Shown: piece after piece, positions 9,306-31,763 of the stretch
Layout: each line of letters begins with the position of its first letter
Numbering within the stretch: the first letter of the stretch is position 1
Assembly: GCF_016127575.1 (NCBI RefSeq)
Contig: NZ_CP066019.1
Span: forward strand, 2,640,001-2,672,000
Direction: 5' to 3'
DNA: 32,000 nucleotides
Source: Cupriavidus necator
Lineage (GTDB): Bacteria > Pseudomonadota > Gammaproteobacteria > Burkholderiales > Burkholderiaceae
The notes under the pieces: generated by a model
What the model saw: the letters and a program-made list of their open reading frames with translations, nothing else
What the model was told of the DNA's origin: nothing
Databases searched by the model: none
Translations under genes and position numbers: made by a program

Positions 9306-10469
9306 TCAGCGCCCGCCGGCGATACGCATCGGTCGGCCATTGGGGTCTCTCAGGAATTCGTTCGCGGTATAGCGATGCTCCTGCTTTTCGCCCATGACGA
9401 ATACATACAGGTTGACGCTCGCCCAACTGCAGGCGAGCCCTTCGCTGGCAAGCACGCTGAGGCAGTTGTGCAGGTTTTCCCGCGTGGGCTTGTAGTGGCC
9501 GCTGTTGTTGTCGATCACGCGCAGCGAGCCATTCCTGATGGTCAGCGTACCTGCGCAAATAACATCATTGCCCGCGTTGAACGACGAGTGGTTGAAGAAC
9601 ATGGCGTCATCCAGCGGATCTGCATCTTTAATGAACAAGGAGCCGTACTTGTCCATCGCATAGGCTGTCACCTTGACCGCATGTGTCGTGATGCGCTGGT
9701 TATTTACGTCGTACAGAAGTCCGTCGTCTCCGACGATCGCCATATACCGCATGCGTTCGCTCTTTGTCAGATAGTTGACATCGCCTGTGACAAGGTTCTC
9801 CCGACCGATGGCATCGAGCAGCTGAAAATCCTCCAGCGTCAGTGCGTGCACATCTTTGCTGGCAATCGCCTCGGCCTCTGCGCGCCGTTGCGGGTTGGCC
9901 GGCATCATCTGCGAGAGATTCTTGTGCGTCAGATGGACACCGCTGCCCGAGATCGCCTGGACCTTGCCCGACTGGAGATAGGACAGACGCTCGTTCTGAT
10001 AGTCCGCGCCCATCGGCCTGAGTTCGCGCACGTAGGGCGAGCGGTCACCGTGGTTGACACCGGAACCGAGCACCAGCAGCTTGCGCCGGTCGAATTTCAT
10101 CCGCCCGCGCAAGTCCGGGGTGAGAATACCCAGCTGGGTCAGGCGCGCATAGAGTTCCTGCAACGCTTCGCTGCCGAGATTCGTGATTGCACGACGGCGC
10201 GTGACGAACAGAGCATTGATCTTTTCAGCGCCGCCAACCAAGCCCTGACGGCTTTCCGGCTTGCCGCGCTTGAGCTTCAGCCAGCCGATGCACGCCGTCA
10301 CGATCGCGTTCAGGCTGGCGATCTCCCGCCGTGCGTCCCGTGCGCCGTTCATCTCTCGCCAATAGTCTTCCAGCGCGCAATCGACCGCGCGGATATTGCT
10401 GCCACGTGCCAGGAACTTCCAGTCCCTGGCGGTGGCGGCGATGAACGTCTGGTATTGGGTCCTCAGCAT
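9306..10469 (-). CDS. Hypothetical protein (about 387 aa) in a low-GC patch at the tssA end of the T6SS cluster; family not recognised
   Basis: Continuous ORF with GGGGAG 7 nt upstream of the ATG at 10469 (the alternative GTG at 10490 is used by the ORF track). Hand-counted 60-nt windows give about 50-58% GC, against about 68% in flanking genes. No signal peptide or TM segment. The C-terminal block is FFNHSSFNAGNDVICAGTLTIRNGSLRVIDNNSGHYKPT. Confidence 0.7.
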   Translation of the reverse strand: MLRTQYQTFIAATARDWKFLARGSNIRAVDCALEDYWREMNGARDARREIASLNAIVTACIGWLKLKRGKPESRQGLVGGAEKINALFVTRRRAITNLGSEALQELYARLTQLGILTPDLRGRMKFDRRKLLVLGSGVNHGDRSPYVRELRPMGADYQNERLSYLQSGKVQAISGSGVHLTHKNLSQMMPANPQRRAEAEAIASKDVHALTLEDFQLLDAIGRENLVTGDVNYLTKSERMRYMAIVGDDGLLYDVNNQRITTHAVKVTAYAMDKYGSLFIKDADPLDDAMFFNHSSFNAGNDVICAGTLTIRNGSLRVIDNNSGHYKPTRENLHNCLSVLASEGLACSWASVNLYVFVMGEKQEHRYTANEFLRDPNGRPMRIAGGR

Positions 10470-10529
10470 GTTCCAGCTCCCCTTGTCCACTTGATGTCAG
10501 AAAATGCCCGGGCTCGGATGCCGTGCCAG

Positions 10530-16546: not shown

Positions 16547-17875
16547 TCAGCCCTTGACGAACAGCAGCATTTCCTGCGGCCGCTGCACGCTGGCGCCTTC
16601 ATTGGGATTGCCGATCACCATCGCCTCGTTGGCATGGACCAGCGCGGGATCGGCTTCGATCTCGAACAACAGGTAACCCGAGCCGGAACGCACCCCAAGG
16701 TCCTCGGCATGCTCGACCACACGGCGCACCGCGCCCAGCACGCGCCGCGTGCGCAGCGACGGGTAGACCGACTGCGAGCCCACCACAGCGCCCGACATCC
16801 AGGCCAGCAGGTCGCGCTCTGACTGCCCGCGCAGGCCCACCACCAGGCGCTCGCCGATCCAGTCCGGCTGCAGCACGATGTCGAACGCGCCGTGGCGGAA
16901 CTCGAACTTGTGCTCGCGGTACTCTTCGCTGACCTCGGCCAGGGTCTCGCGCAGCGCGCGCAGCAGCGGCGTGAACACGGCCATGGGGTCGGCGTGTTCA
17001 TAGTCGTCCGGCACCGGCGGCAGGCCGCCCGGCTTGAGCAGGCTGAGCGACCCCAGCACCGAGGCCAGCGCCAGGTAGAGTGCAAGCGGGTGCAGATGCG
17101 GCGTGCGCAACACCGCCTCCAGCAGCGGCAGCGCGGTCACCAGGCTGCGCAAGCGGTCCTTCAGTTCCAGCTGGGTCAGGCGGTCGTCCGCCCGGGATGA
17201 CGGGATCGCGGTCTGCTTGGCCACGAACGCGGCCTTGCCGCGCAGCTGGGCCACCAGCGACGCCACCGCCGTCCACAGCGCGCTGCCGCGTGCCACCTCC
17301 AGCAACGGCGGCAGGCGGTCGCCGAGCCGCACGATCTCGTTGTCCTTGTAGACCGCGCCCAGGCACAGCGACACATGGAGCGGCGACGGCCTGGCGCCGG
17401 CATCGAGTGCCAGGCTTGGCAGCAGGCGCGGAATGTCGGCGGGCGGCGCTTCGGACACCTCATCCTCCACCGGGGCGCCCGCCACCGAGCGGAACCGCCG
17501 CACCTGCCCGTCCTTGCGGTTTGCGGCCGCCACCGGCAGGGTCAGGTAAAGCGCCAGCATGCCGCCGGCAAGCGCGTCGGCAAACGGCTCGAGCGCCAGC
17601 TCCAGCGGCGGCTGGCGGGCATCGTCGCGCGCGTAGGACACGGCAGTGCCGTCCGGCATGATGGCTTCGAGCTGCAGCACGCGCACCACGCCCGCCGGCA
17701 GCAGCCCGGCGTCGAACTCCAGCCGGCGCACGCCCCAGCCAAACGGTGCGGCCGCGAGTGTCTGCCACGCCACCAGCGAATCGAGCCGCCCGGCCAGCAG
17801 CTGGAGATGCTGGGGCGCCAGCAGCATGCCCTCATGCCATTCAACCCGATCGACCGGCAGCGCGCGCTCAGACAT
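16547..17875 (-). CDS. tssK: Type VI secretion baseplate subunit TssK
   Basis: The N-terminus VEWHEGMLLAPQHLQ matches the TssK hallmark (W.EGM.L.PQH.Q). Size is 442 aa. It sits between tssJ and tssL. Confidence 0.9.
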   Translation of the reverse strand: MSERALPVDRVEWHEGMLLAPQHLQLLAGRLDSLVAWQTLAAAPFGWGVRRLEFDAGLLPAGVVRVLQLEAIMPDGTAVSYARDDARQPPLELALEPFADALAGGMLALYLTLPVAAANRKDGQVRRFRSVAGAPVEDEVSEAPPADIPRLLPSLALDAGARPSPLHVSLCLGAVYKDNEIVRLGDRLPPLLEVARGSALWTAVASLVAQLRGKAAFVAKQTAIPSSRADDRLTQLELKDRLRSLVTALPLLEAVLRTPHLHPLALYLALASVLGSLSLLKPGGLPPVPDDYEHADPMAVFTPLLRALRETLAEVSEEYREHKFEFRHGAFDIVLQPDWIGERLVVGLRGQSERDLLAWMSGAVVGSQSVYPSLRTRRVLGAVRRVVEHAEDLGVRSGSGYLLFEIEADPALVHANEAMVIGNPNEGASVQRPQEMLLFVKG

Positions 17876-17920
17876 GGGGGGCTCCCGGGCCGTACGCGGC
17901 CGTGGCAGGAAAAACCAGGT

Positions 17921-18424
17921 TCATTTGGTCACAAGCACGGTAAAGGCGGCGCTGTCGAGCTGCACGGCAAGCGTGCCGTTGAATTGCTCGACGCGGGCGC
18001 GATGCGCGCCCGGCGCCTGGTAGTTGGCGAACACATAGGCCGCGGCGACGCGCGGCCCCTCCAGGTCTTCGGCCGGCACGTCCAGCCGCTGGCCGGGCAC
18101 CAGTTCCCAGCTGCGATAACGCAGCCCGCTCGGATAGGTGCTGCCCAGGTCGCTGCGCCCGGCAAACCACTTGGCCGCGGGCAGGTCCGCCAGCCGGGCC
18201 TGCAGGGCCTCGTCGCTGACCAGCACCACGTCGACGGCCACCGGGCTGTTGCCGTTGGCATCCGCCGCCGCCGTCAGCGTGACTTGCTTCCATTTGACCT
18301 TGTCCCCCTTGAAGCCCAGCCATGAAGAGGCCGCGCAGCCCCCGAGCAGGCCAGCGAGCGCAGCCGCCGCCAGCAGCGTGCCGGCGCGGCGCAGGGATAA
18401 GAGATGCACGGGCGTCGTCATCAT
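17921..18424 (-). CDS. tssJ: Type VI secretion lipoprotein TssJ
   Basis: Lipobox LLGGC after a signal peptide. SciN-like ADANGNSPVAVDVVLVSDEALQARL. AAGGAG lies 4-7 nt upstream of the ATGATG at 18424/18421. The ORF track starts further upstream at 18457. Confidence 0.85.
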   Translation of the reverse strand: MMTTPVHLLSLRRAGTLLAAAALAGLLGGCAASSWLGFKGDKVKWKQVTLTAAADANGNSPVAVDVVLVSDEALQARLADLPAAKWFAGRSDLGSTYPSGLRYRSWELVPGQRLDVPAEDLEGPRVAAAYVFANYQAPGAHRARVEQFNGTLAVQLDSAAFTVLVTK

Positions 18425-18453
18425 CAGACTCCTTCGTGGTTGCGGATGCGGCA

Positions 18454-19908
18454 TCATTTCGCACCCACCCCGATGCCCATCAGCACGATCAGCAGACCGG
18501 CCAGCAGCGCGCAGGCGCTGGCCAGCGCCAGTTGCGCGCGCGTCAGCACCAGCCGCACCGCCGCGGCCTGTGCGGCGGGCAGCCGTGGGCCCGGCACGTG
18601 CGCGCGCCCATCCGCGCCCTCCATCCGCTGCGCCGCGACGCGTTCCATCGGCAGGCCCACCGACACCAGCGCAATCACCGCGCAGGTGCAGACCAGGCTC
18701 AAGGCATTGCGCGGCCCATCGCAGATCGGGTCGATCGCCAGCAGCAGCACTGCGGCTGCCTCAGCCGGCAACTGCAGCACCGACAGCGCAACGCCCGCAT
18801 AGGCGATCGTTCCCAGGCCGCCCTGCCCCGCCGAGAGCCAGGCCGCGATGGTGGCGGCCATCGCGATCCATGCCACGTCGCCGGCGCCCACGGGGCGCCC
18901 GTACAGGTTGGCGACGAACACCGTGGCCAGCGCGAAGTACAGCGCCGAGCCCCCGCGCACGAACACCGCGCCCAGGGGCACCACCAGCTCCACCAGCCCG
19001 CGCGGAAAACCCAGCCGCGCGCTCATGGCCTCGATTGTGTGCGGGATCGGCGCGGTGGCGCTGCCTGAGGCCAGGCCGACCAGCATGGAGCCATTCAGCT
19101 CGGTCACCACCTGCGAGAACGGCAGCCGCGCGCAGGCGGCAATCGCGGCCGCGGCCACGCCGCTGAGCAGCAGGCAGAGCATCAGGAACGTGACCAGCAC
19201 CCCGGCCATCGCGCCCATGGTGGCGCGGTCGGCATGCATCGACAGATGGGCCGCAAGCCCGAATGCCAGCACCGGGATCAGCAAGTTGGCGTGGGCGATG
19301 ATCTGCTCGAAGGTGCGGTAGATCCCTTCGAACACATTGCTCAGCATGCCGGTCTGCTCGCGCGACAGCGCTGCGAAGGCAAGCCCGAACAGCAGCGCCC
19401 CGGTGAGCACGCCCAGCGTCTGGCCATGCGCCAGTGCGCGGTAGAAGTTGTCGGGAATGATGTTCCCGAGCGCGTGCGGCAGCTTGTCCGTATTGGCCTC
19501 TGCCTTGCCATGCAGGTCCACGCGCACCTCGCCGCCATCGGCCACGCCGCTGAGGATCAGCGCGCCAAGCTTTTCGCTGGCCTGTGCAGGGAGTTCCGCG
19601 CCCGGCGCGGTCAGCAGCCCCGCCAGCGCGCCGGCCAGCGCGCACACCCCCACCACCCCGGCAGCCGTGCCGAAGATGGCGCCGAAACGCGCCCCGGCGC
19701 GCGGCAGCGCCAGCACCTGGCGCAGGCCGAAGAAGGTGGCCACCACCAGCAGCGGCACCGCGGCCATGTTCACCACCGACAGGTAGAGCTGTCCGACCAG
19801 CCAGGCGAAGCGGCCCAGCGGCCCGGCCACGGTGCCGGCGAGCGCGCCCGCCACCAGGCACAAGAGCAGCCCGGGCACGCTGTGCGAGAGCCAGTTCAGG
19901 GCTTTCAT
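18454..19908 (-). CDS. Dicarboxylate/amino-acid:cation symporter (DAACS/SDF) family transporter, divergent, with an extra C-terminal hydrophobic tail
   Basis: Aligns by eye to the GltPh core: SGSATAPIP (SSSGTLP), VVPLGAVFVRGGSALYFALATVFVAN, and IDPICDGPRN (DxxxDxxR). The start at 19908 forms an ATGA overlap with the racemase stop. I judged the ORF-track N-terminal extension to 20364 spurious. Confidence 0.8.
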   Translation of the reverse strand: MKALNWLSHSVPGLLLCLVAGALAGTVAGPLGRFAWLVGQLYLSVVNMAAVPLLVVATFFGLRQVLALPRAGARFGAIFGTAAGVVGVCALAGALAGLLTAPGAELPAQASEKLGALILSGVADGGEVRVDLHGKAEANTDKLPHALGNIIPDNFYRALAHGQTLGVLTGALLFGLAFAALSREQTGMLSNVFEGIYRTFEQIIAHANLLIPVLAFGLAAHLSMHADRATMGAMAGVLVTFLMLCLLLSGVAAAAIAACARLPFSQVVTELNGSMLVGLASGSATAPIPHTIEAMSARLGFPRGLVELVVPLGAVFVRGGSALYFALATVFVANLYGRPVGAGDVAWIAMAATIAAWLSAGQGGLGTIAYAGVALSVLQLPAEAAAVLLLAIDPICDGPRNALSLVCTCAVIALVSVGLPMERVAAQRMEGADGRAHVPGPRLPAAQAAAVRLVLTRAQLALASACALLAGLLIVLMGIGVGAK

Positions 19909-20627
19909 GCGGCCTTGTTCCAGCCGCGCGCCAGCGCGAACGCCACCGTCGCCCGTGCCAGCTCGTTGGTGCTGTCGACCAGCATGAGCGGCGGCGCGGC
20001 CAGGCCGCGCGCCGCCACCGGGATTTCCGTGCAGCCCATGATCGCGGCGCCGACGCCGAGCGCCGCGATCCGCGCCAGCGCGCTGCCAAGCGCCTCGCCG
20101 GCCTGGTCCAGGGCGCCGGCCTTGACCGCCCGGATGCAGGCATCGACCTGCAGCTGCACCGGCTCCGGCGGCACCACCGCCGCGATCCCGCGCGCGTCGA
20201 GCGCTGCCTGGTAGATGCCGGAGGCCAGCGCACCGCGCGTGGCCAGGATGGCCACGCTGCCGGTATCGGCAGGCAAGGCCGCCACGCAGATCCGCGCGAT
20301 ATGCAGGATCGGCGCCGCGCTGTGCGCGCTCAGTTGCGCATACCAGTGGTGCGAGGTATTGCACGGGATCACCACCAGCCCCACCTGGTTGCGGTTGAGC
20401 AGCTCGATGCCGCGCAGCAGGTAGGGCAGCGGCAAGGCATCGCCAGCCAGGATCGAGCGCGAGCGGTCAGGAGTCTGCGGCAGGTGCGCCACCACCATCG
20501 GCAGGTGGTCCTGGTCACGCACGGCATCGGTAAGCCGAACCACGCGATCGAGAAAATCCACTGTCGCCAGCGGCCCCATGCCGCCCAGCACCCCGATCAT
20601 GGTCATGCCAGTACTTCCGTTGTTCAT
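19905..20627 (-). CDS. Aspartate racemase (Asp/Glu/hydantoin racemase family)
   Basis: IGVLGGMGPLATVDF, and both catalytic-Cys motifs: VIPCNTSHHW and IMGCTEIPV. Size is about 240 aa. An alternative start is at 20606. Confidence 0.85.
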   Translation of the reverse strand: MNNGSTGMTMIGVLGGMGPLATVDFLDRVVRLTDAVRDQDHLPMVVAHLPQTPDRSRSILAGDALPLPYLLRGIELLNRNQVGLVVIPCNTSHHWYAQLSAHSAAPILHIARICVAALPADTGSVAILATRGALASGIYQAALDARGIAAVVPPEPVQLQVDACIRAVKAGALDQAGEALGSALARIAALGVGAAIMGCTEIPVAARGLAAPPLMLVDSTNELARATVAFALARGWNKAA

Positions 20628-20638
20628 ATGAGCCGACC

Positions 20639-21973
20639 CTAAAGCTTCAGCGGCCGCGGGCAGATCACCGACACCGCCGCGGTATTGCCGACCACCAGGA
20701 TCAGCGTGCGCAGCATGTCGCAGACCGGGTCGACGGCAAGGAAGAGAATGAATGCGGCCTCGAATGGCAGGCCAAGATAGGCACAGGTCATGCCGACCAG
20801 CGAAACGATCACCAGGCCCGTCATGCCGGCCGAAGCAAAGCCCGCCAGCACCGAGGCCAGCAGCACCGTGGCGATATCGACCAGGCCCAGCGGATGGCCG
20901 TACAGCTGCGCGATGAACAGCGTGGCGCAGACGTAATAGACCATCGGCCCCACGCGCAGCAGCGAGATCGCCAGCGGCACCAGCAGTTCCACGCGCACCC
21001 GGGCAAAGCCGAGCCGGTCGACCAGGCACTCGATCATGCTGGGCATGCAGGCCGCGCTGTTGCGCGTGGCCAGCGCCAGCGCAAATGGTGAGCGCAGCGC
21101 GTCCAGCGTGGCGCCCAGGCTCTGGCTGGAGCGCTTCCAGATGATCCCGACGGCCAGTGCCAGCAGCAGCACCGACGCGATAGAGAACGCCAGCACGAAC
21201 TGCATCATCGCCTGCAGCGGCTCCAGTCCGGACTTGCCCAGCTGCGCCGCGCTCATGCAGAACAGGATCACGGGCAGCGGATAGCTGAGCCAGTGCATCA
21301 GCTTCTGGCAGGCGTGGTAGACCGTTTCCAGCGACAGGCTCAGCCCGATGGAAATGCGCTCGGGCACGCGCCCCACGGCCAGGCCGAACATCAGCGCGAA
21401 CACCAGGGCCTTGAGGGCGTCGCCGTTGGCGAGCGCGGCAAAGATATTGGTCGGGATCAGGCTGGTCAGGACTTCGGACAGGCTCAGCGACTTCTCCTGG
21501 ATATCCTCGCCGTAGAGGTTCATCACCGTATCGCTGGACGTGGCATCGCTGCCCACCATCGCGCCGAAGGTCTCCATGGTGGCGCTCGACAGGTTGCTGC
21601 CCGGGCGCATCACGATCAGCACCAGTGCCGACACCAGCGCCACCAACAGCGACGCGCCGACAAACACCGTCACCACGCGGATCATCAGCCGCGAGGCCCC
21701 ACCATCGCGGAACAGCCGCTGCAGGCTGAAGATCACCGCCGACACCATGAACGGCAGCGTGGTCATCTTGAGCAGGTCCACGTAGACATCGCCCACCACG
21801 CCCAGGTGCCGGGCCAGCGCGGGCCAGAGCAGCCCGGTGGCGCCGCCCAGCGCCAGGCTGCCGATCACCACCCACGGATTGAGGGCAATGGCGTAGAGCT
21901 TGCCGGCATCCAGCTTCATGGACGCGGCGCGCTGTGCCTGGGCCGCGCCCGGCTTCATGGCGGGCGCGCTCAT
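20639..21973 (-). CDS. Dicarboxylate/amino-acid:cation symporter (DAACS/SDF) family transporter, divergent
   Basis: [26 protein letters not shown] aligns to GltPh [43 protein letters not shown] matches IDAILDMGRTMVNVTGD. The start forms an ATGA overlap with the upstream binding-protein stop. Confidence 0.82.
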   Translation of the reverse strand: [444 protein letters not shown]

Positions 21974-22941
21974 CGCGTGGCCGCCTGCAGCACGTCCGCC
22001 ACCTCGAGCCGCTTGGGCCGCTCGGCGAGGAACTGGTTGACAAAGCCCAGCAGCGCCGGCGCCGACACGTTGACGGCGATGCCCAGCGTGTCCTCAAGAT
22101 CCTGCAGCGTCACCACGCGCAGGCGCAGCGCAGCGGTCGGATCCGCCTTGAGCACGCGCTTGACCTCGAACTCGTCGCGGTACACCGCGGCGACGCGGCC
22201 GTCGTTCAGCGCCTTCAGGGCTTCATCCCAGGTTGGATAAGCCGTGACGTAGGCCTTGGGAAAATTGTTCACCACATACTCCGAGTACGACGAATTTCCG
22301 ACCACGCCAATCGAGCTGTCATAGGCGCGGATCACCTCCGGCACCGGCCGGCCGCGTGCCATCTGAGCGAACTTGACGCGATTGAGCAGCAGCGCGCGGT
22401 TCAGCCGCAGGTAAGGTGTGCTGAAGCTGATGATCTGCATGCGCGGCAGCGTGCGCGACAGCTTGCTGATGGCCACGTCGGCCTGTCCCTGCGCCAGCAG
22501 CTTGACCACCCCGTCGAAGGTGGTGGCGTCGCGGTTGAAGCGCACCCGCACGTTGAGCTTGCGCGCAAGCTCGCGCGCGAGGTCGATATCGAGCCCGCTC
22601 AGCTCGCCGTTGCGCTCCTGGAAGAACGGGGGCTGGTCCACCTTCAGCACCGCGACCACCAGTTCGCCGCGGCTGGCGATGCGGGCGAACTCCGGCGCCA
22701 TCAGGCGTCCGTCAGGCATCAACACCAGTCCGTTCGGTGTGGAGACTGGCGCAGGGGCGCCTTCCGGCAACCCGCCCTGCGCGGCAAACGATGCCGCCGG
22801 GTGGGCCGGTGCCGGCGTGTAGGTGGCCTGCGCATGGCCAGCGGCCGGCAGGGCAAGCGCGGCGCCCGCGAGGGCGCGCGCCAGCCAGCGCCACGCGCGT
22901 GTTGCCGCGCGGCGGGAATCAGGGACGGGAGTCAGCGACAT
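21970..22941 (-). CDS. Periplasmic solute-binding protein, family 3 (polar amino-acid binding type), with a long Ala/Pro-rich linker
   Basis: Signal peptide with the Tat-like DSRRAATRAW and cleavage near GHA-QA. SBP_bac_3 core: LVVAVLKVDQPPFFQERNGELSGLDIDLARELARKLNVRV, GQADVAISKLSRTLPR and FSTPYL. The start is set to 22941. Confidence 0.8.
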   Translation of the reverse strand: MSLTPVPDSRRAATRAWRWLARALAGAALALPAAGHAQATYTPAPAHPAASFAAQGGLPEGAPAPVSTPNGLVLMPDGRLMAPEFARIASRGELVVAVLKVDQPPFFQERNGELSGLDIDLARELARKLNVRVRFNRDATTFDGVVKLLAQGQADVAISKLSRTLPRMQIISFSTPYLRLNRALLLNRVKFAQMARGRPVPEVIRAYDSSIGVVGNSSYSEYVVNNFPKAYVTAYPTWDEALKALNDGRVAAVYRDEFEVKRVLKADPTAALRLRVVTLQDLEDTLGIAVNVSAPALLGFVNQFLAERPKRLEVADVLQAATR

Positions 22942-22961
22942 GGCGTCAAACGGTTCATGTT

Positions 22962-23240
22962 TCAGGGAGTCGAGGGCGCGCCTGGAGCCGCGGCAAGGCC
23001 AACGGCAATGGCGGGCGCCTGGGTGGCGGCGGGCAGCGTGGCAGTGGCCGGGGCCGCGGGCGCCACGGCCATGGGTGCGGTGTCCGCACGCTGGAGTACG
23101 CCAGGCCGTCCCAGGCGGGCGCCGATCTCCACGCCCATCAGGAACAACAGCGCACACAGCAGCACCGCGCAGGTCACGGCGATTGTCACCATGCGCGAGC
23201 TCATCGAGAATACGTAGGTCATGCTTGCCTCGGCGGTCAT
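22962..23240 (-). CDS. Small single-pass membrane protein with an Ala/Pro-rich tail (86-92 aa), unknown function
   Basis: The ATG at 23240 overlaps the TGA of the DUF4280 gene (TGATG). TM segment is MVTIAVTCAVLLCALLFLMGVEIG. GC3-rich frame. The stop is 20 nt before the binding-protein start. Confidence 0.55.
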   Translation of the reverse strand: MTAEASMTYVFSMSSRMVTIAVTCAVLLCALLFLMGVEIGARLGRPGVLQRADTAPMAVAPAAPATATLPAATQAPAIAVGLAAAPGAPSTP

Positions 23241-23626
23241 CAGGGGGTCATCACGGTGGCCTGCGCCGGCGCGACGATCTGGATCACGCCGCCCCATGCG
23301 CACATCAGTTTCGAGCTGTCCTGCAGCGCCGGCGCGCCGCCGATCTGCACGGTCGGCGCGCCCGGCAGCCACGGCGCCGACGTCGCCGGCACGCAGGGCA
23401 TCGGTGTCAGCACGCCCTGCGCCGCGGCGGTGGCCGCGGCCACCTGCGGGTTGCCCAGGCAGTTGCACATGCCGAAGGGCGGGATGTTCACCATCGGCAG
23501 GTGGTCCATCACGCTGGCCGCACCGGTGCCGGCCAGCACGCGGCCCAGCGGCAGCACGACCAGGCTGGACGGCGCCAGCCCGAAGCTGCACTGCATGGTC
23601 GCGCCCATGGTGACCTGCAAGGCCAT
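23240..23626 (-). CDS. PAAR-like DUF4280 domain protein (128 aa, no extension domain)
   Basis: MQCSFG, VNIPPFGMCN, PMPCVPATSAPW, APALQDSSKLMCAWGGVIQI match the DUF4280 Cys pattern. GAGGGG lies 7 nt upstream. The start is 2 nt after the MORN-protein stop. Confidence 0.85.
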   Translation of the reverse strand: MALQVTMGATMQCSFGLAPSSLVVLPLGRVLAGTGAASVMDHLPMVNIPPFGMCNCLGNPQVAAATAAAQGVLTPMPCVPATSAPWLPGAPTVQIGGAPALQDSSKLMCAWGGVIQIVAPAQATVMTP

Positions 23627-23628
23627 GG

Positions 23629-24333
23629 CTAACCCCTCAGCCAGCGTTCGAGACGCTGTGCAAAGCCGGCGGGCACTGCCGCGCCCTCCTCGCCATCGGC
23701 GGGTGCGATCGCCTGCCAGTCGCCGCGGGGATTGCCGTCGGCGTAGCTGCGCACGGCGATGACCTCGCCTTCCGGGTCGAACCTGCGCGCCATGCCGTGC
23801 AGCAGGTCGTTGCGGTACGGCAGCGACTGCGCCAGCGTGCCGCCGGCGCCGTACTCACGGGTCTCGCCCTCGAGCCTGCCGGCGCGGTAGCGGCTGCGGC
23901 GCACCACCGCGCCCTCATGCGCATAGACGGCCTCGTCCTCGAGCCGGCCCTGCCGGTAGACGCAGCGCGCGGTCACCTCGCCGGACGGCGCGTAGCACAC
24001 GCTCTCTCCCGCGAGCTGCCCGTCGGCGTACAGCTGGCGCGTCTCCAGCCGGCCGTTGCGGTAGGTGGCGCTGGTGCCGTGCAGGCGGCCGCCGGCATAA
24101 TGCGCTTCGTATTCGAGGCTGCCATCGGCGGCATAGGCACGCAGCAGCCCCGCCAGTTCGCCATGTTCGTATTCGGCATCCAGGCGCAGCGAGCCATCCG
24201 GATGGAAGCACTCGAACCTGCCGTGGGGGCGCCCGCCGGCCAGCGGCACGCGCGACACCAGGCGGCCATCGCCGTCATAAGCTTCGGCCATGGCGGGTCC
24301 TGGATCGGGCGGCGTCGGGGCAGCTAAAGTCAT
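23629..24333 (-). CDS. MORN-variant (YwqK/COG2849-type) repeat protein, 7-8 repeats of about 23 aa
   Basis: Repeats of the form G-x-L/P-H/A/E-G-x5-Y-x3-G-x-L: GRPHGRFECFHPDGSLRLDAEYEH, GELAGLLRAYAADGSLEYEAHYAG, GRLHGTSATYRNGRLETRQLYAD and so on. The start is 16 nt after the vgrG stop, with an alternative start at 24291. Confidence 0.8.
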   Translation of the reverse strand: MTLAAPTPPDPGPAMAEAYDGDGRLVSRVPLAGGRPHGRFECFHPDGSLRLDAEYEHGELAGLLRAYAADGSLEYEAHYAGGRLHGTSATYRNGRLETRQLYADGQLAGESVCYAPSGEVTARCVYRQGRLEDEAVYAHEGAVVRRSRYRAGRLEGETREYGAGGTLAQSLPYRNDLLHGMARRFDPEGEVIAVRSYADGNPRGDWQAIAPADGEEGAAVPAGFAQRLERWLRG

Positions 24334-24349: not shown

Positions 24350-26251
24350 TCAGTTCAGTTTCACCAGGGCGCCCTTGAGCTCGAGCATGCCGCCGCTTTC
24401 CACCGTCTGCGCGGCCGACGCCTTCTGCCGGACCATCATGGCTTCGTTGCTCAGGGTGGTACCGGCCTTGCTGCTCAACGTGGTGCCGGCCTCGCACTGC
24501 AGCGAGGTTCCCGCCTTGAACGCGATCGATCCACCGACCTCGATCACCAGGTTGCCGGCCACCGTGAGCTTGTAGTTGCCGCCAACGTCGTGCGCAAACG
24601 CCGCGCCGCTGGTGTGGGTCTCGTCGCCGTCCGCCTTGACCTGGCGCGTGCCGCTCACCTTGTGTGTTTCATTGCCGGACCGCACTTCGAGCGCAAGGTC
24701 GCCGGCCTTGACCAGGTGCGATTCGCCGCCCGCCTCCACCATGGTGGACAAGGTGTCTGCCACCGAAACCGTCATGGCGCGCTGGGCGCGCAGGAACAGC
24801 TCCTCGGCACCAGCCTTGTCTTCCATGCGCAGCTCATTGCCGGCCGACCCGCCCTTCGATGCGCGCGAACGGATCACGCTCTGCGTCTGCATGGCGGGCA
24901 GCGGCACCGGTACGCCGGACTGGCCGTTGTAGACGCTGCCGGTCACCAGCGGCCGGTCCGGGTCGCCATCGACATAGCTGACCACCACCTCCTGCCCCAT
25001 GCGCGGCAGGAACAGGTGGCCCCAGCCGGCGCCGGCCCAGGCCTGCGCCACGCGGACCCAGCATGAGCTGTCCTGGTTGGCGCCGGGCGCACGGTCCCAG
25101 TGGAACTTCAGCTTGATACGGCCATGCGCATCGGTCCAGATCTCTTCGCCCTGGGACCCGGCCACGGTCGCGGTGTGCGTGCCGGCGACCAGCGGCCGCG
25201 GCGTGCTGAGCGGCGCGCGGAATGGCACCGACAGCGGCAACACCGACACGGTATTGCCATAGGCATCACCGCTCCAGGCATGCTCCACCGCGCGCACCAC
25301 GTAGGCGATATCGAGCGCGGGATCGACGTGGCCGTGCAGCGTGAAGCGGATGCCCGCGGCCAGGTGGTGGCACGCGCTCTCGCCCATGCCCGTCTGCGCC
25401 TGGGCCTGCTGCGCGCCGGCCCGGATCGCGGCCTTGCGGCTGGCGTCGGCGGCATCCTTGTGCCGGCCGGGAAACACGTACTGCTGCGCCACCGGCGCCG
25501 CGCCGGCCTGGGCGGTGCCCTGCGAGGTCCGGGCCTGCAGGTAGTCGTAGTCGGCCAGAACCTGCGTCGCGGCGCCAAGCTGGCGCGCCATGCCGAAGGC
25601 GAGCATCCGTGCCGCGCCGGCCTGCGGGCGCTCCATGTCGTGCATCGCCAGGTCGGCGCAGTGCGCGCCGGGCGGGTGGGCCGACGGGCTGTCGGCCAGC
25701 ACCATGGTGTGCGCGCCGTCCGCGAACGTGAAGAAGTAGAAGATGCCTTCCTCCTCCATCAGCCGCGAGATGAAGTCGAACGGGCTTTCGTCGTACTGCA
25801 CACAGTACTCGCGCATCGGGTAGCGCGTTTCCGTGATGCGGGCCTCGAACGCCACGTCGAAGGACTGCAGCACGCGGCGGATGATCTGCGGCGCGGACAG
25901 GTTCTGGTAGATGGCGCGGTCGCGCCCGAGGGTCAGCAGCCACAGCCGCGGCGCCAGTTCCGCGGTGTAGAAGCCATGGTTGTGGTCGGCGCCGGCGTGG
26001 GCAAAGCGCGTGACGATGCCGTTCAGGTAGCGGGGCGCGCCGCCCGGGTGCTGCAGCGTGACGGTGAGGCGCTGGCCCACGATGCGGCCCGCGTCGAGCG
26101 CCTTGTCCGCCGAGCGCATGCGCAGGCTGAAGCGGAACAGCTCGGACAGCGCCTCGCGCCCGGCAAAGCCGTCGAGCAGCAGCACGTCGCCGCCAAACGG
26201 CGTGGCCAGGGTCGCGAAGCTGCCGGCCTGGGTGGCCTGTGTCGGGATCAT
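24350..26251 (-). CDS. vgrG: Type VI secretion spike protein VgrG (633 aa, no C-terminal effector extension)
   Basis: LSELFRFSLRMRS at the N-terminus. gp27/gp5 core with PRMGQEVVVSYVDGDPDRPLVTGSVYNG. C-terminal beta-helix repeats end in LELKGALVKLN. Confidence 0.92.
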   Translation of the reverse strand: MIPTQATQAGSFATLATPFGGDVLLLDGFAGREALSELFRFSLRMRSADKALDAGRIVGQRLTVTLQHPGGAPRYLNGIVTRFAHAGADHNHGFYTAELAPRLWLLTLGRDRAIYQNLSAPQIIRRVLQSFDVAFEARITETRYPMREYCVQYDESPFDFISRLMEEEGIFYFFTFADGAHTMVLADSPSAHPPGAHCADLAMHDMERPQAGAARMLAFGMARQLGAATQVLADYDYLQARTSQGTAQAGAAPVAQQYVFPGRHKDAADASRKAAIRAGAQQAQAQTGMGESACHHLAAGIRFTLHGHVDPALDIAYVVRAVEHAWSGDAYGNTVSVLPLSVPFRAPLSTPRPLVAGTHTATVAGSQGEEIWTDAHGRIKLKFHWDRAPGANQDSSCWVRVAQAWAGAGWGHLFLPRMGQEVVVSYVDGDPDRPLVTGSVYNGQSGVPVPLPAMQTQSVIRSRASKGGSAGNELRMEDKAGAEELFLRAQRAMTVSVADTLSTMVEAGGESHLVKAGDLALEVRSGNETHKVSGTRQVKADGDETHTSGAAFAHDVGGNYKLTVAGNLVIEVGGSIAFKAGTSLQCEAGTTLSSKAGTTLSNEAMMVRQKASAAQTVESGGMLELKGALVKLN

Positions 26252-26254
26252 GCG

Positions 26255-28975
26255 TCAGCACCCCGCTTGCGGCAGGAAGCGGAACGCCACCCCGCCGCCG
26301 GTGTCGAGCGAGAGATGCACGCCGCCGAACGGCTCCGAGATCGACAGCTGCTCCAGCACGCGCCGCGCCAGTTCCGGCAGCACCGACTGGGTCAGGATAT
26401 GGTCGACATTGCGCGCGCCGCTGTCGACCTCGGTGCAGCGCTGCGTGATCGCCTGCGCCAGCGCCTCGTCCCAGCTCAGGCGCGCGTTGTGGTTGCGCGC
26501 AAAGCGCTGCGCCAGCCGCGCCAGCTTGAGGTCGACGATATTGCGGATCTGCGCATCGCCCAGGTGGTAGTACGGCACCAGCACCAGGCGCGCCAGGAAC
26601 GCCGGGCTGAACTGCCTGAGCAGCGCCGGGCGCAGCTTCTCGACCAGTTCCTGCGGCGGCGGGCGCCGGCCGCCGCGCGAGGCCTCGGTGATCACGTCCT
26701 GCGCCGCGTTCGAGGTCAGCAGGATCACCGTGTTGCGGAAATCGATCGGCACGCCTTCGCCGTCTTCCATCACGCCCTTGTCGAAGACCTGGAAGAACAG
26801 CTCCAGCACGTCGGGATGCGCCTTCTCCATCTCGTCGAGCAGCACCACGCTGTACGGGCGGCGGCGCACCGCCTCGGTCAGCACGCCACCCCGGCCGTAA
26901 CCGACATAGCCCGGCGGCGCGCCCTTCAGGCCCGACACGCTGTGGGCCTCCTGGAACTCCGACATGTTGACCGTGATCATGTTGCGTTCGCCGCCGTAGA
27001 GCAGGTCGGCCAGCGCATGCGCGGTCTCGGTCTTGCCGACGCCGCTCGGGCCGACCAGCAGGAACACGCCGACCGGCTTGCCCGGGTCATCGAGATCGGC
27101 GCGGAACGTGCGGATGCGGCGCGCGATCGCGTCGAGGGCCTCGTCCTGGCCCACCACGCGCTCGCCGAGCTTGTCCTGGAGGTACAGCACCGTGTGCAGT
27201 TCGTCGGCCAGCATGCGGCCGACCGGGACACCGGTCCATCCCGAAATGACCTCGGCCACTGCGGCCGAGTCCACGCATACCGGCACCATCGGCTCATCGT
27301 TCTGCACCGCCTCCAGGCCTTTTTCCAGGCGCGCGAGACTGGCGCCAAGCGACTCCGCGCTGTCGGCGTTGTCGTCGTCCTCATGCCTCGCCACACCGTC
27401 GGCACCGGCCTCGGCCTGGCTCTCCTTCTCGAGGAACGCCGCGATCCGGCGGCGCCAGGCCAGGATTTCCTCGACGGCCAGCTTCTCGGTGGCGAGCTTG
27501 TCGCTGAGCCGCGCGTGCTGCGCCCGGGCTTCGTCGCGCTGGCGCGTGACGGCAGCGATTTCGTCGGCGCGCCCGGTGCCGGTGGCCGCCTCATGGCGCA
27601 GGATGCGCAGCTGGTTCTCGGCGCTTTCGATCGAGCGCCCAAGCGCTTCGATCGCCTCGGGCACGCCGCTCTGCGCGGCCGCCACGCGGGCGCAGGCGGT
27701 GTCGAGCACGCTGATGGCCTTGTCGGGCAACTGCCGGCCCGAGACATAGCGGTGCGAAAGCTTGACCGCGTCGCGCACGGCGTCGTCGAGGATCTCCACG
27801 CCGTGGTGCGCTTCAAGCTTGCGCACCATGCCGCGCAGCATGTCCACGGCCGCGGCCTCGGCCGGCTCGTCCACCTTGACGATCTGGAAGCGGCGCGCGA
27901 GCGCTGGGTCGCGCTCGATGTACTTCTTGTACTCGGCCCAGGTGGTCGCGGCAATGGTGCGCAACTCGCCGCGCGCCAGCGCGGGCTTGAGCAGGTTGGC
28001 GGCATCGCCCTGCCCTTCGCTGCCGCCGGCGCCAATCAGCTGGTGCGCTTCGTCGATAAACAGGATCACCGGCACCGGCGAGGCCGCCACCTCGGCGATC
28101 ACGGACTTGAGCCGGTTCTCGAACTCGCCCTTGACGCCGGCGCCGGCCTGCAGCAACGCCAGGTCCAGCGAGCGCACCGACACTTGGCGCAGCGCCGGCG
28201 GCACGTCGCCGGAGACGATGCGCTGGGCAAAGCCTTCGACCACCGCGGTCTTGCCCACGCCGGCCTCGCCGGTCAGGATCGGGTTGTTCTGGCGGCGGCG
28301 CAGCAGCACATCGATCAGTTGCCGGATTTCACTGTCGCGCCCGCGCACCGGATCGATCGCTCCGGCTCGCGCCAGCGCCGTCAGGTCGACAGTGAACTGC
28401 TCCAGCGCCGATGCCTGCCCGCTGCCGGGTCCGCGCTGCGGCATGCCGAACGCTGGCGTGGCCGCCGCTGCCGGGATTGCATCGGTTCCGGGCCCGCCGC
28501 CAACGGCGGATGCCCCCAGCAGCGCGGGCAGGGCCTCGCGCAGCGCCGCACGCGGAATCCGCAGCAGCGCCGGCGCCGATTCCAGCAGCATGCCGCGCAG
28601 GCTTTCCACCTCCAGCAGTGCCAGCAGCAGCGTGCCGGCGCGCACTTGCTGCTCGCCGAGCAGCATCGAACTGAGCAGCCAGGCCTCCTGGAACAGCGGC
28701 GAGAAGTTAGGCGACAGCGCCGGCGTGCGGCCGTTGCCGCGCTTGAAGCCGTCGATCGCCTTCTGCAGCTGCGACACCACCTGCGCGGGCGCCAGGTCGA
28801 AGTGCGCGAGGATCGCCTGCAGGTCCGTGGCGCCGCCTTCCAGCAATTGCAGCAGCAGGTGCTCGACGTCGACGCTGTAGTGCGTCTGCCGGACGCAAAG
28901 CTGGGCGGCCTGCTCCATCGCGTGCCGGCACTCGGGATTGAGGCGGCTGAGCAGCGTGCGGATATCGATGTCCAT
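26255..28975 (-). CDS. tssH: Type VI secretion AAA+ ATPase TssH (ClpV)
   Basis: Clp N-domain. Two Walker A motifs, GEAGVGKTA and GPSGVGKTE. ClpB-like middle region. 906 aa, located between tssG and vgrG. Confidence 0.93.
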   Translation of the reverse strand: MDIDIRTLLSRLNPECRHAMEQAAQLCVRQTHYSVDVEHLLLQLLEGGATDLQAILAHFDLAPAQVVSQLQKAIDGFKRGNGRTPALSPNFSPLFQEAWLLSSMLLGEQQVRAGTLLLALLEVESLRGMLLESAPALLRIPRAALREALPALLGASAVGGGPGTDAIPAAAATPAFGMPQRGPGSGQASALEQFTVDLTALARAGAIDPVRGRDSEIRQLIDVLLRRRQNNPILTGEAGVGKTAVVEGFAQRIVSGDVPPALRQVSVRSLDLALLQAGAGVKGEFENRLKSVIAEVAASPVPVILFIDEAHQLIGAGGSEGQGDAANLLKPALARGELRTIAATTWAEYKKYIERDPALARRFQIVKVDEPAEAAAVDMLRGMVRKLEAHHGVEILDDAVRDAVKLSHRYVSGRQLPDKAISVLDTACARVAAAQSGVPEAIEALGRSIESAENQLRILRHEAATGTGRADEIAAVTRQRDEARAQHARLSDKLATEKLAVEEILAWRRRIAAFLEKESQAEAGADGVARHEDDDNADSAESLGASLARLEKGLEAVQNDEPMVPVCVDSAAVAEVISGWTGVPVGRMLADELHTVLYLQDKLGERVVGQDEALDAIARRIRTFRADLDDPGKPVGVFLLVGPSGVGKTETAHALADLLYGGERNMITVNMSEFQEAHSVSGLKGAPPGYVGYGRGGVLTEAVRRRPYSVVLLDEMEKAHPDVLELFFQVFDKGVMEDGEGVPIDFRNTVILLTSNAAQDVITEASRGGRRPPPQELVEKLRPALLRQFSPAFLARLVLVPYYHLGDAQIRNIVDLKLARLAQRFARNHNARLSWDEALAQAITQRCTEVDSGARNVDHILTQSVLPELARRVLEQLSISEPFGGVHLSLDTGGGVAFRFLPQAGC

Positions 28976-28986
28976 GTTTGTGCCGG

Positions 28987-30033
28987 TCAGGATGCGTGCG
29001 CTCGCAACGCCAGTTGCACCGGCGCGGGCCGTGCCTGGGCGCCGCCGGCCAGCCAGGCGGTCCAGCCCAGGCGCGCACCGAGCCCCAGCCCCGCGGGCTG
29101 GCGCGTGCCGAGATGGAGCGCGAGCCGCACATCGAGCGGTTGCGGCACATAGGCGCGCACCAGCGCCGCGACCAGCGCGTGGTCGCGCCCGCCGGGCAGC
29201 AAGGCCCGCAGGCGCTCGGCTCCGGGCACCTGCACATCAAGCCGGATGCCGGCGGCCTGGTCCCAGGTGCGCCGCCCCAGCACCGCACCGCCGCCGAGCG
29301 TGATACCCCCGGCTGCACCGCGTCCGCCGAGCCGCACGGCATCGCTGGCTTCAACCGGCAGCCAGCCGCCGAGACACTGCGTCCCGCTCACGCCCAGGCC
29401 GAGACGGTCCCCCAGCATGGCCAGCAACCCCGCCATCGAACGCGGCGCCGCGCCCAGCAGCCCGGCATGGCGCAGCCACGGCGCCGCGCCGGCGGGTGCA
29501 TTGGCGGTTGAGGGCCCACGCTGCAAGCCGAGGTTGCTGAGCGCATCCAGGCACGCCGCCAGCGTGCCGCCGGTCGGGCGCTGGCCGCCCAGTGCGGGCG
29601 AGTGCTTGCGCCGGCCGCGATACAGGAAGGACAGGAAGCGGTGATTGAAGCTGTCGAGCAGGTCGCCCATCGCGGGGTCGCGCGCGGCGCGGCGTTCGAG
29701 CAGCATCTCGGTGTATGCGAGCGGCAGCGGCCCGCCTGCCCCCGCCAGCGACATCACGGGCGTCGTCAGCGTGAACGGGCGCCCGCCCCGGCCAGCGCCT
29801 TCAGCGGACGCGTGCACCGCGCCGATGTCGCGCGGCTGGAAGGCCAGCGAGACCAGTCCGCGCAGGCGCACCGCCTCCCCGGCGCCATTGCCGCGGCCGA
29901 CCGGCTGAGCCCCCGGCACCGCGCGTTCGATCAGGCTGATGGCCTGGAACAGGTCGAAGCCGGCCGGGTTGGACGCCAGGCGGTCGATCAAAGCAGCTGC
30001 TGGCTGCCCGTCATCGCGGGCCATTGCTTCCAT
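28987..30033 (-). CDS. tssG: Type VI secretion baseplate subunit TssG
   Basis: N-terminal FDLFQAISLIER motif typical of TssG. 348 aa. The start overlaps the tssF 3' end, with an alternative start at 30024. Confidence 0.88.
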   Translation of the reverse strand: MEAMARDDGQPAAALIDRLASNPAGFDLFQAISLIERAVPGAQPVGRGNGAGEAVRLRGLVSLAFQPRDIGAVHASAEGAGRGGRPFTLTTPVMSLAGAGGPLPLAYTEMLLERRAARDPAMGDLLDSFNHRFLSFLYRGRRKHSPALGGQRPTGGTLAACLDALSNLGLQRGPSTANAPAGAAPWLRHAGLLGAAPRSMAGLLAMLGDRLGLGVSGTQCLGGWLPVEASDAVRLGGRGAAGGITLGGGAVLGRRTWDQAAGIRLDVQVPGAERLRALLPGGRDHALVAALVRAYVPQPLDVRLALHLGTRQPAGLGLGARLGWTAWLAGGAQARPAPVQLALRAHAS

Positions 30034-31763
30034 ATCTCGTCTCCGCGGCGCACGACCAGCCGCACGAAGGAATTGACTGAGGCATACAGCGCAAGGAAGC
30101 GCGCCAGCACCGCTCCCAGCAGCAGCGGCGAGCCGCCGACAAAGGCATCGGGATCGAACTCGATCGAGACCTCGGTGCCACGGCAGTAGCCGCGCCAGGC
30201 CTCGGTGCCCACGTGCGCGGCCGCGCCGCGCGCGCGCACGCTGCGGATGCCCCGCACCTGGTCCTGCTGGCGGTGGCCGTCGCCCGCGAACAGCCGCAGC
30301 ATCTGCTGCACCTCATGGCGCCCGGTGCCACCGCCGGCCAGGGTGCCGTGGTGCAGCGTCAGCAGCGAGATCAGCGGCCACAAGGTCTCGCTGCCCATGG
30401 GCGGATTGCGCTGCACGGTCGGCTCATAGAGGCAGCGCACCTGCGCGTACTGCGACACATCCTCCAGCACCATGCGCGCACCCACCGGCACCTGCTCCGC
30501 GAGCCGGCGATTGGTGCACAGCACGTTGGCGTACGCCACGGGTGCCGCCGGCAGGCGCTGCACGTTGCCCGCATCGATGAAGCTGAGATACATGTCGGTG
30601 CCGGACAGGTTGGCCCGCAAGGTCGGCTCGCGGCGCGCGTGCCAGAACAGCTCGCCTTCGGCCGGGTCGTCGGTGGCCGCCGCGAACGGCGGCACCGCCA
30701 GCGAGCGGTCGCTGGCCGGATCCGACAGCACCACCGACCGGATCGAATGGATCTCGGTCATCGCCTCGCGGCGCTGGTCTGCCACCAGCCGGTACTCATA
30801 GTGCCGGTGGTCGATCATGATGGGCTCGCTGGTCTGCGAGAACAGGTTGATCGCCGGCACGCAGCCAAGCCGGAACATGCCGGCATGCAGCCGGCCCAGC
30901 CCGGGTGCGCTGCGCTGCAGGCGCAGCACCACGTCGCAGCTGCGGCCCTTGCCGAGCCGGCCGGCGGGCAGGTCCAGGTCGAAGAAGTGAAACTTGCGCG
31001 CGAAGGCGAAATACTCCTGCATCAGCCCGTAGGCCGGCTGCGCATGCGGCGGCTGCGGCAGCACGTTCTCGCCGGGGCCGTAGCCGGCCTCGCGCCACGC
31101 GCTGGCGGGCAGCCACGCCGGCGGGCCATCTGGCGGCTCGACGCTGACGCCGGCCACGCTGGTGACCAGCAGTTCATACAACGGCACGGTCACCATCCAG
31201 TCGCCGTGCAGATGGATGCGCAGCGTTCCCAGTTCGAGCTCGGAGAAATCGACGCCGTCGGCGCATTCAAGCGTCAGCCGCAGGCCGTTGTCATCGGTCA
31301 TGCGCGCGTGCGTGACCGCCAGCGGCCACAGCGTCGTGTCCCACGCCGTGCGAAAGCGGCACATCTCGCCGCCCTCGGTGCATGCATGCAGGCCGGTGTG
31401 GCGCGGCACGGCGTAGCCGGCGGTCACCTTGCCCTGGGCCGCGTCGAGATCGAACTGCACCACCGTCATCGACGGCACCGGCTGCACCAGCGACGGGCAC
31501 ACGTTCTCCAGCAGCGCCGCGGCAACTTGCGGGAACACCTGGTCCAGGTCGCGATGCACGCGCGCCGCCAGATAGGCGGTGGCTTCGATCAGGCGCTCGG
31601 TATGCGGGTCGAGCGATTCGGTGCCATGCAGCGCAATGCGCGCGGCCACGTTGGGATAGCGCTCGGCAAACGCGGCGCCTTCCGTGCGCAGGTAGGCAAG
31701 CTCGCGCTTGTAGTACGGCAGGATGCCGCCGTCGCCGGCACCGTCTGCGATGCCCTCAGCCAT
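29988..31763 (-). CDS. tssF: Type VI secretion baseplate subunit TssF
   Basis: ILPYYKRELAYLRTEGAAFAERYPNVAARI is the hallmark TssF N-terminus. 591 aa. There is an 8-nt overlap with the tssE stop. Confidence 0.92.
   Translation of the reverse strand: MAEGIADGAGDGGILPYYKRELAYLRTEGAAFAERYPNVAARIALHGTESLDPHTERLIEATAYLAARVHRDLDQVFPQVAAALLENVCPSLVQPVPSMTVVQFDLDAAQGKVTAGYAVPRHTGLHACTEGGEMCRFRTAWDTTLWPLAVTHARMTDDNGLRLTLECADGVDFSELELGTLRIHLHGDWMVTVPLYELLVTSVAGVSVEPPDGPPAWLPASAWREAGYGPGENVLPQPPHAQPAYGLMQEYFAFARKFHFFDLDLPAGRLGKGRSCDVVLRLQRSAPGLGRLHAGMFRLGCVPAINLFSQTSEPIMIDHRHYEYRLVADQRREAMTEIHSIRSVVLSDPASDRSLAVPPFAAATDDPAEGELFWHARREPTLRANLSGTDMYLSFIDAGNVQRLPAAPVAYANVLCTNRRLAEQVPVGARMVLEDVSQYAQVRCLYEPTVQRNPPMGSETLWPLISLLTLHHGTLAGGGTGRHEVQQMLRLFAGDGHRQQDQVRGIRSVRARGAAAHVGTEAWRGYCRGTEVSIEFDPDAFVGGSPLLLGAVLARFLALYASVNSFVRLVVRRGDEIWKQWPAMTGSQQLL

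Follow-up and report, generated by a model that had tools for sequence, protein, structure and literature searches.

What does a type VI secretion system (T6SS) deliver from a cargo slot behind vgrG in which no toxin can be recognized? The question is raised by a 32,000-nucleotide stretch of Cupriavidus necator DNA (contig NZ_CP066019.1, positions 2,640,001 to 2,672,000; hereafter the window, with positions counted from its first letter), which carries most of one T6SS cluster on its minus strand. An earlier note, made from the letters alone, had described there a VgrG followed by three coupled genes, for a MORN-repeat protein, a DUF4280 protein and a small membrane protein, and had left the MORN protein as either a non-enzymatic binding effector, a new adaptor or an orphan immunity protein. 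Our results point to a vesicle-tethering effector of the TseF/TeoL family as the occupant of this slot, rather than to a novel kind of cargo or to an antitoxin without its toxin. We give a probability of roughly three in four to the reading in which these genes make up the cargo module at the spike tip of a T6SS of the T6SS-b/i4a type, known as T6SS1 in Cupriavidus pinatubonensis JMP134, and the MORN protein acts as a non-toxic TeoL-like vesicle tether. The domains, orthology, synteny and fold of the module are observations; the window copy itself is an unstudied TeoL ortholog of an already published family. The genes and the site concerned are the following.

24350..26251, minus strand: VgrG spike, 633 residues, without a C-terminal effector extension; ortholog of VgrG1 (Reut_A1726)
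23629..24333, minus strand: MORN protein, 234 residues, TeoL ortholog (MORN_2 repeats, synteny, homology)
23240..23626, minus strand: DUF4280 (PF14107) PAAR-like spike cap, 128 residues, without an extension domain; corresponds in position to Reut_A1724 and Bphy_5987
22962..23222, minus strand: small single-pass membrane protein, most likely 86 residues, read from the conserved start (92 residues if read from the alternative ATG at 23240)
23228..23231, minus strand: GAGG, Shine-Dalgarno-like, read from sequence; the conserved ATG of the small open reading frame (ORF) follows 5 nt downstream

Domains and fold of the cargo genes

Coordinates and Pfam domains confirmed a 633-residue VgrG without effector extension, with three coupled genes behind it. 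The protein carries the Phage_GPD (314.9 bits), Phage_base_V and Gp5_trimer_C domains, scores 545 bits on the NCBIfam model TIGR03361 and ends with a gp5-like needle, with nothing beyond. The MORN gene follows after 16 nt and the DUF4280 gene after a further 2 nt, both exactly as previously read; the TGATG overlap given for the last junction does exist at ATG 23240, but the conserved start of the small ORF is ATG 23222, from which the gap is 17 nt. The DUF4280 protein is indeed a bare cap, with 117.6 bits on PF14107 (cut-off 26.3) and coverage of profile positions 1–109. In a DUF4280 family search it was the sole such protein of the genome, and no match was returned in any of 14 control genomes. 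It shares its domain with the IglG/DUF4280 PAAR-like family (Rigard et al., PLoS Pathog 2016, PMC5014421) and is read as a spike cap; unlike IglG, it has no N-terminal extension, and with 46.6 bits on the IglG model it stays below the cut-off of 200 and is therefore no IglG equivalog.

The MORN protein scored 43.7 bits on MORN_2 (PF07661; cut-off 29.6, E 1.4e-11). Where seven to eight repeats had been proposed, dividing the sequence by eye gave eight units of 23–24 residues (residues 16–204), behind which a variable linker leads to the conserved C-terminal helix (...QRLERWLRG). An AlphaFold2 model built from eight sequences (mean predicted local distance difference test score, pLDDT, 89) contains 17 strands and a helix at 223–233, separated by a low-confidence linker. 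Its best Foldseek matches were MORN1 structures of Trypanosoma, Toxoplasma and Plasmodium (6t68, 6t6q and 6t4d; E 4e-7), followed by junctophilins and single-layer β-sheet OspA variants, with no catalytic fold among the matches. By this model the protein is a pure MORN array lacking a catalytic domain. Congruently, neither Pfam nor NCBIfam gave an enzyme-like domain in the MORN, DUF4280 or small proteins, which agrees with the absence of a recognizable toxin stated in the earlier note. We also considered a toxin hidden on the opposite strand and rejected it: the plus-strand ORFs at 22737-24327 are unsupported shadow frames of the kind usual at 72% G+C.

Homology to TeoL and TseF

The earlier note had mentioned TeoL as a possible match without being able to place it. 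TeoL is encoded in the T6SS1 cluster of JMP134 (Reut_A1713–A1733), for which the original report lists teoL as Reut_A1725, vgrG1 as A1726, clpV1 as A1727, tssM1 as A1715 and hcp1 as A1731 (Li et al., ISME J 2021/2022, PMC8776902). When the genes of the window were counted with TssM as 1715, the MORN gene became 1725 and the tags fitted gene for gene. The paper gives no description of the protein, and we traced its identity through the primer table. A Cupriavidus contig found via a homologue of the small membrane protein (L041, GCA_903797845.1) matched the published primers teoL-1F, 1R, 2F, 2R and R, vgrG1-F, clpV1-F and clpV1-R with 0 mismatches, and the deletion arms predicted on it (833 bp and 774 bp) equal the sizes in that paper. 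Its teoL primers flank a 238-residue MORN_2 ORF (L041:4886-5602) directly after vgrG1, to which the window protein is 52% identical over 231 residues (E 2e-75). Both proteins have eight repeats, the terminal RLERW(V/L)RG and the conserved blocks VVRRSRYRAGxLEGETR and LLHGxxRRF, and both genes lie directly after vgrG1 and before a DUF4280 gene in the same 21-gene order; they differ in length (238 against 234 residues) and at ~48% of residues. Full-length identity at this level to a primer-defined gene, in the same gene order, identifies the window protein, by sequence, as the ortholog of TeoL (Reut_A1725).

The printed teoL-F primer (supplement of PMC8776902) contains five C where the start of the gene (L041:4886-4909) has six. 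Since the other primers match exactly, the table probably contains a typing error here, and the missing C accounts for the lack of any match to an exact 40-mer built from two teoL primers. Neither MORN repeats nor PAAR or DUF4280 are mentioned in the TeoL paper, which for the repeats may be because TeoL reaches 28.7 bits on MORN_2, just below the 29.6 cut-off.

TeoL is released in a tssM1-dependent manner, binds lipopolysaccharide (LPS) through the O-antigen with a dissociation constant of 0.58 μM, binds the TonB-dependent receptors CubA and CstR, and through these contacts holds outer-membrane vesicles at the cell, which serves iron uptake (PMC8776902); a second paper on the system links it to oxidative-stress survival. 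A comparable protein is TseF (PA2374) of the Pseudomonas aeruginosa H3-T6SS, which has 178 residues with MORN motifs, is encoded beside vgrG3, binds the Pseudomonas quinolone signal (PQS) and relies on FptA and OprF as receptors (Lin et al., Nat Commun 2017, PMC5379069). In the same study a glutathione S-transferase–TseF fusion pulled down VgrG3, and TseF homologues were mostly found adjoining a VgrG gene with PAAR genes nearby. We obtained the tseF sequence from a metagenome contig via the published primers. BLASTP aligned the window protein with TseF at 33% identity over 141 residues (E 2e-16), and hhalign matched TseF to the TeoL-type alignment with a probability of 98.9%, placing TseF residues 24–164 on the last six repeats; because this match falls in repeat units, several registers are possible and the alignment register is not unique. 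Like the window protein, TseF consists of MORN_2 repeats and is encoded beside vgrG with a DUF4280 gene adjoining, and it is non-toxic and recruits vesicles for iron; unlike it, TseF has about six repeats and the C-terminus ...RWRWWWTRLAEP, its DUF4280 gene converges on the MORN gene, and the short contig showed no gene for a small membrane protein. From homology and synteny, the window protein, TeoL and TseF are placed in one family.

The orientation of the DUF4280 gene varies between lineages: DUF4280 and MORN genes converge in the P. aeruginosa-type locus (L062:1-1400) and in one further genome (G194; L029:2166-2558), and run in the same direction, 2–4 nt apart, in the T6SS-b lineage.

According to the proposed mechanism, VgrG would form a trimeric spike capped by the bare DUF4280 protein, and the MORN protein would travel as non-toxic cargo, probably bound directly to the spike in the way that TseF binds VgrG3. 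Upon firing it would be released outside the cell, where its elongated single-layer β-sheet would bind an envelope ligand on outer-membrane vesicles (the LPS O-antigen in the case of TeoL) and bridge these vesicles to the TonB-dependent outer-membrane receptors of the producer, so that vesicle cargo such as iron is captured. Neither a toxin nor an immunity gene would be expected in such a slot. The toxin-less slot thus finds its explanation in published work, with TseF described in 2017 and, in 2021, TeoL as well as the T6SS-b layout, and the three genes after vgrG correspond, through family homology, to an already characterized effector module.

Several observations weigh against this reading. 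Secretion, LPS binding and receptor binding are taken from the published orthologs. The window protein is only ~52% identical to TeoL; that it keeps the activities of TeoL at this distance, and how it is loaded, we infer. The two characterized family members differ from each other in ligand (PQS, LPS) and in receptors (PMC5379069, PMC8776902). A probable cstR gene from a relative (G051) found its best match in the window genome at 34% identity, which is paralog-level, and the cubA primers had no match in the two relatives searched (G027, which is JMP134-like, and G051). The best Fur-box-like site, upstream of tssB and beyond the window (L020:3327-3345), agrees with only 12 of 19 consensus positions, so iron regulation of this copy is not evident from its sequence.

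The most serious uncertainty concerns the ligand. The window protein could be a secreted tether of the TseF/TeoL type that recognizes some other vesicle lipid, signal molecule or polysaccharide and works with other receptors, as TseF (PQS, with FptA and OprF) already differs from TeoL (LPS, with CubA and CstR). The lack of an evident close ortholog of the probable cstR gene would fit such a change, and so would the divergence of the MORN gene: in a comparison with G027, the MORN protein was the least conserved product of the cluster (54% identity, against 70% for VgrG, 73% for DUF4280, 79% for TssK, 83% for SDF and 84% for ClpV), and this faster divergence also fits the main reading, in which the protein reads variable surface ligands. 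We nevertheless consider a different ligand unlikely, given that the window strain and the TeoL host belong to the same genus and that the alignment with TeoL is full-length, with the same eight repeats and both conserved blocks kept.

Secretion of the ortholog also bears on the idea of an orphan YwqK-type immunity protein or antitoxin directed against a toxin encoded elsewhere. In Bacillus subtilis, YwqK is the partner of YwqJ in the YwqJK toxin–antitoxin module, and its MORN_2 repeats are the source of the database name. The window protein shares this repeat type, the comparison being one of repeat families; unlike YwqK, it has no adjacent toxin gene, lies inside a T6SS operon and has a secreted ortholog. 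Databases do call its homologues "YwqK family antitoxin" (PMC8356804), but this label follows the generic MORN_2 repeat and reflects repeat similarity, not orthology; the neighbours are VgrG and DUF4280, in which Pfam and NCBIfam detect no toxin domain. A conceivable distant partner is the 394-residue candidate effector at the tssA end (9306-10490), which gave no Pfam match below E 0.001 and looks like strain-specific cargo. It has no homologue in five other genomes with the same T6SS module, including the JMP134-like one, and for this reason we do not consider it and the MORN protein a pair. Altogether, an immunity role seems very improbable, and of the three options raised at the outset it is the binding effector that agrees with a TeoL ortholog homologous to TseF. 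The widespread "YwqK family antitoxin" annotation beside vgrG is misleading and can be replaced.

A conserved spike module with a fourth gene

To place the window among related loci, we compared gene order across other genomes. In 17 of the 17 other betaproteobacterial loci checked, VgrG, the MORN protein, DUF4280 and the small membrane protein occur together as an unchanging unit. MORN orthologs were present in 4 of 77 other Cupriavidus genomes (84, 77, 56 and 55% identity), and a fifth gave only a weak partial match (E 1e-4). The order in all four is TssG, ClpV, VgrG, MORN, DUF4280, small membrane protein, solute-binding protein (SBP), SDF symporter, racemase, SDF symporter, an ORF of ~170 residues (TssJ-like) and TssK; it recurs in Paraburkholderia lycopersici, P. 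fungorum, other genomes and metagenome contigs and, more distantly within the order, in two further genomes, Massilia forsythiae among them. The DUF4280 proteins of related loci have 128–129 residues and are 60–93% identical to the window protein.

The same layout was published for the T6SS-b (subtype i4a) of Paraburkholderia phymatum STM815, in which Bphy_5985-5988 are vgrG, a "YwqK family antitoxin" gene, a PAAR-like gene and a hypothetical gene, followed by SBP, SDF, racemase and SDF genes; C. pinatubonensis JMP134, C. necator H16 and C. necator NH9 are named there as carriers of T6SS-b (Hug et al., Front Plant Sci 2021, PMC8356804). That work names the genes only, draws no link to TeoL or TseF and takes no view on the hypothetical protein. 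The window follows the T6SS-b-type core order, with vgrG, MORN, DUF4280 and small protein genes between clpV and tssJ/tssK. A MORN gene between spike and cap, which the earlier note had found odd, is therefore the normal arrangement both in the TseF/TeoL family and in T6SS-b. TeoL, the "YwqK" gene of T6SS-b and TseF can be treated as one family, and our literature search found no paper joining "TeoL" and "YwqK".

Database searches with the MORN protein were less informative on the extent of this family. A search of genome contigs with it as single query returned no related loci. In a profile search against 1.84 billion representatives, MORN proteins of 800–1100 residues dominate and ~25 of the top 150 are TeoL-type (220–255 residues), so the search yields no clean size for the TeoL-type family.

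Three loci carry reduced clusters (L027, L028 and L040, the last a contig of a betaproteobacterial metagenome-assembled genome). The whole transport cassette is absent from them, and they keep VgrG, a shorter MORN protein (161–218 residues), DUF4280 and a small single-pass protein, directly followed by a lipoprotein-like gene and TssK. The cassette is also incomplete elsewhere, with one symporter and no racemase in the Ramlibacter albus locus and two symporters and no racemase in the Massilia locus. From these comparisons, the SBP-SDF-racemase-SDF cassette (18454-22941) is best described as an optional insertion that separates the gene for the small membrane protein from the TssJ-like gene. 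The short MORN homologues retain the C-terminal helix motif (SRLTRLLRGD, SLLQRLFTGDA), and this persistence makes the helix a candidate docking element.

Both the constant position of the gene and the retained helix would also fit an intracellular adaptor or chaperone that keeps the VgrG–DUF4280 tip assembly-competent, its secretion being incidental. MORN and DUF4280 genes adjoin VgrG in every locus examined, including the reduced clusters with shorter arrays, and there is a precedent in DUF2169, which keeps DUF4150 (PIPY) tips assembly-competent (PMC11883445). Against this, TeoL and TseF are recovered from supernatants and act extracellularly, the phenotypes are restored when protein or vesicles are supplied, and in P. 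aeruginosa and G194 the convergent DUF4280 gene is not co-transcribed with the MORN gene. As the main role of the protein we find this quite improbable. The "new adaptor" of the earlier note may survive as a second role; it would not be new, since direct binding to VgrG3 is published for TseF (PMC5379069).

The fourth gene, a fixed part of the module, encodes a small membrane protein of an unstudied family. As previously described, the small protein of the window has one hydrophobic helix and an Ala/Pro-rich tail (54% Ala+Pro after the helix); its motif [YF]x[FL]S[ML]TxxR precedes the membrane helix, which is followed by GxExG and the tail. Fourteen homologues start at MTYVFSM or equivalent, corresponding to the window ATG at 23222, and both this start and the motif are kept in 15 loci. 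As this start is conserved and lies 5 nt downstream of the GAGG, the protein most likely has 86 residues, the length given by gene callers in close relatives (P0007), rather than the 92 from ATG 23240. In the alignment R10, L25, G30 and G34 are invariant and the tail sequence is not conserved. The tail of the G027 protein (L007:6161-6450) holds the short tandem repeat EVATEVATEVAT, which shows that the tail evolves by slippage under little sequence constraint. A profile search returned at least 133 clusters, all from Betaproteobacteria and all annotated as hypothetical, and no family or structure that explains the protein was found.

We rejected the small protein as a part of the transport cassette, as it is present in L027, L028 and L040, where the cassette is missing. 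Its persistence in these clusters assigns it to the spike module, of which it is, judging from gene content, the fixed fourth member. We tentatively propose, as a possibility that we rate well below even, that this protein with its conserved cytoplasmic motif is an unrecognized accessory of this T6SS lineage. The MORN cargo, itself non-toxic, would require it for being loaded at the spike tip or released there, and the C-terminal helix of the MORN protein would serve as docking element.

Neighbouring genes of the cluster

The remaining features around the module are listed below in the order of transcription.

29988-31763, minus strand: TssF, T6SS cluster gene
28987-30033, minus strand: TssG, T6SS cluster gene
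26255-28975, minus strand: ClpV, T6SS cluster gene
21970-22941, minus strand: family-3 SBP
20639-21973, minus strand: first SDF symporter
19905-20642, minus strand: ORF between both SDF symporters; related loci have an Asp/Glu racemase at that place
18454-19908, minus strand: second SDF symporter
17868-18464, minus strand: 198-residue ORF just upstream of tssK, without Pfam match
after the 198-residue ORF, minus strand: TssK, TssL, TssM and TssA, T6SS cluster genes

The positional equivalents of the 198-residue ORF in L027 and L028 bear lipoprotein-type signal sequences (…LASC and …LQGC). On account of these signals, the ORF at 17868-18464 is probably a divergent TssJ.

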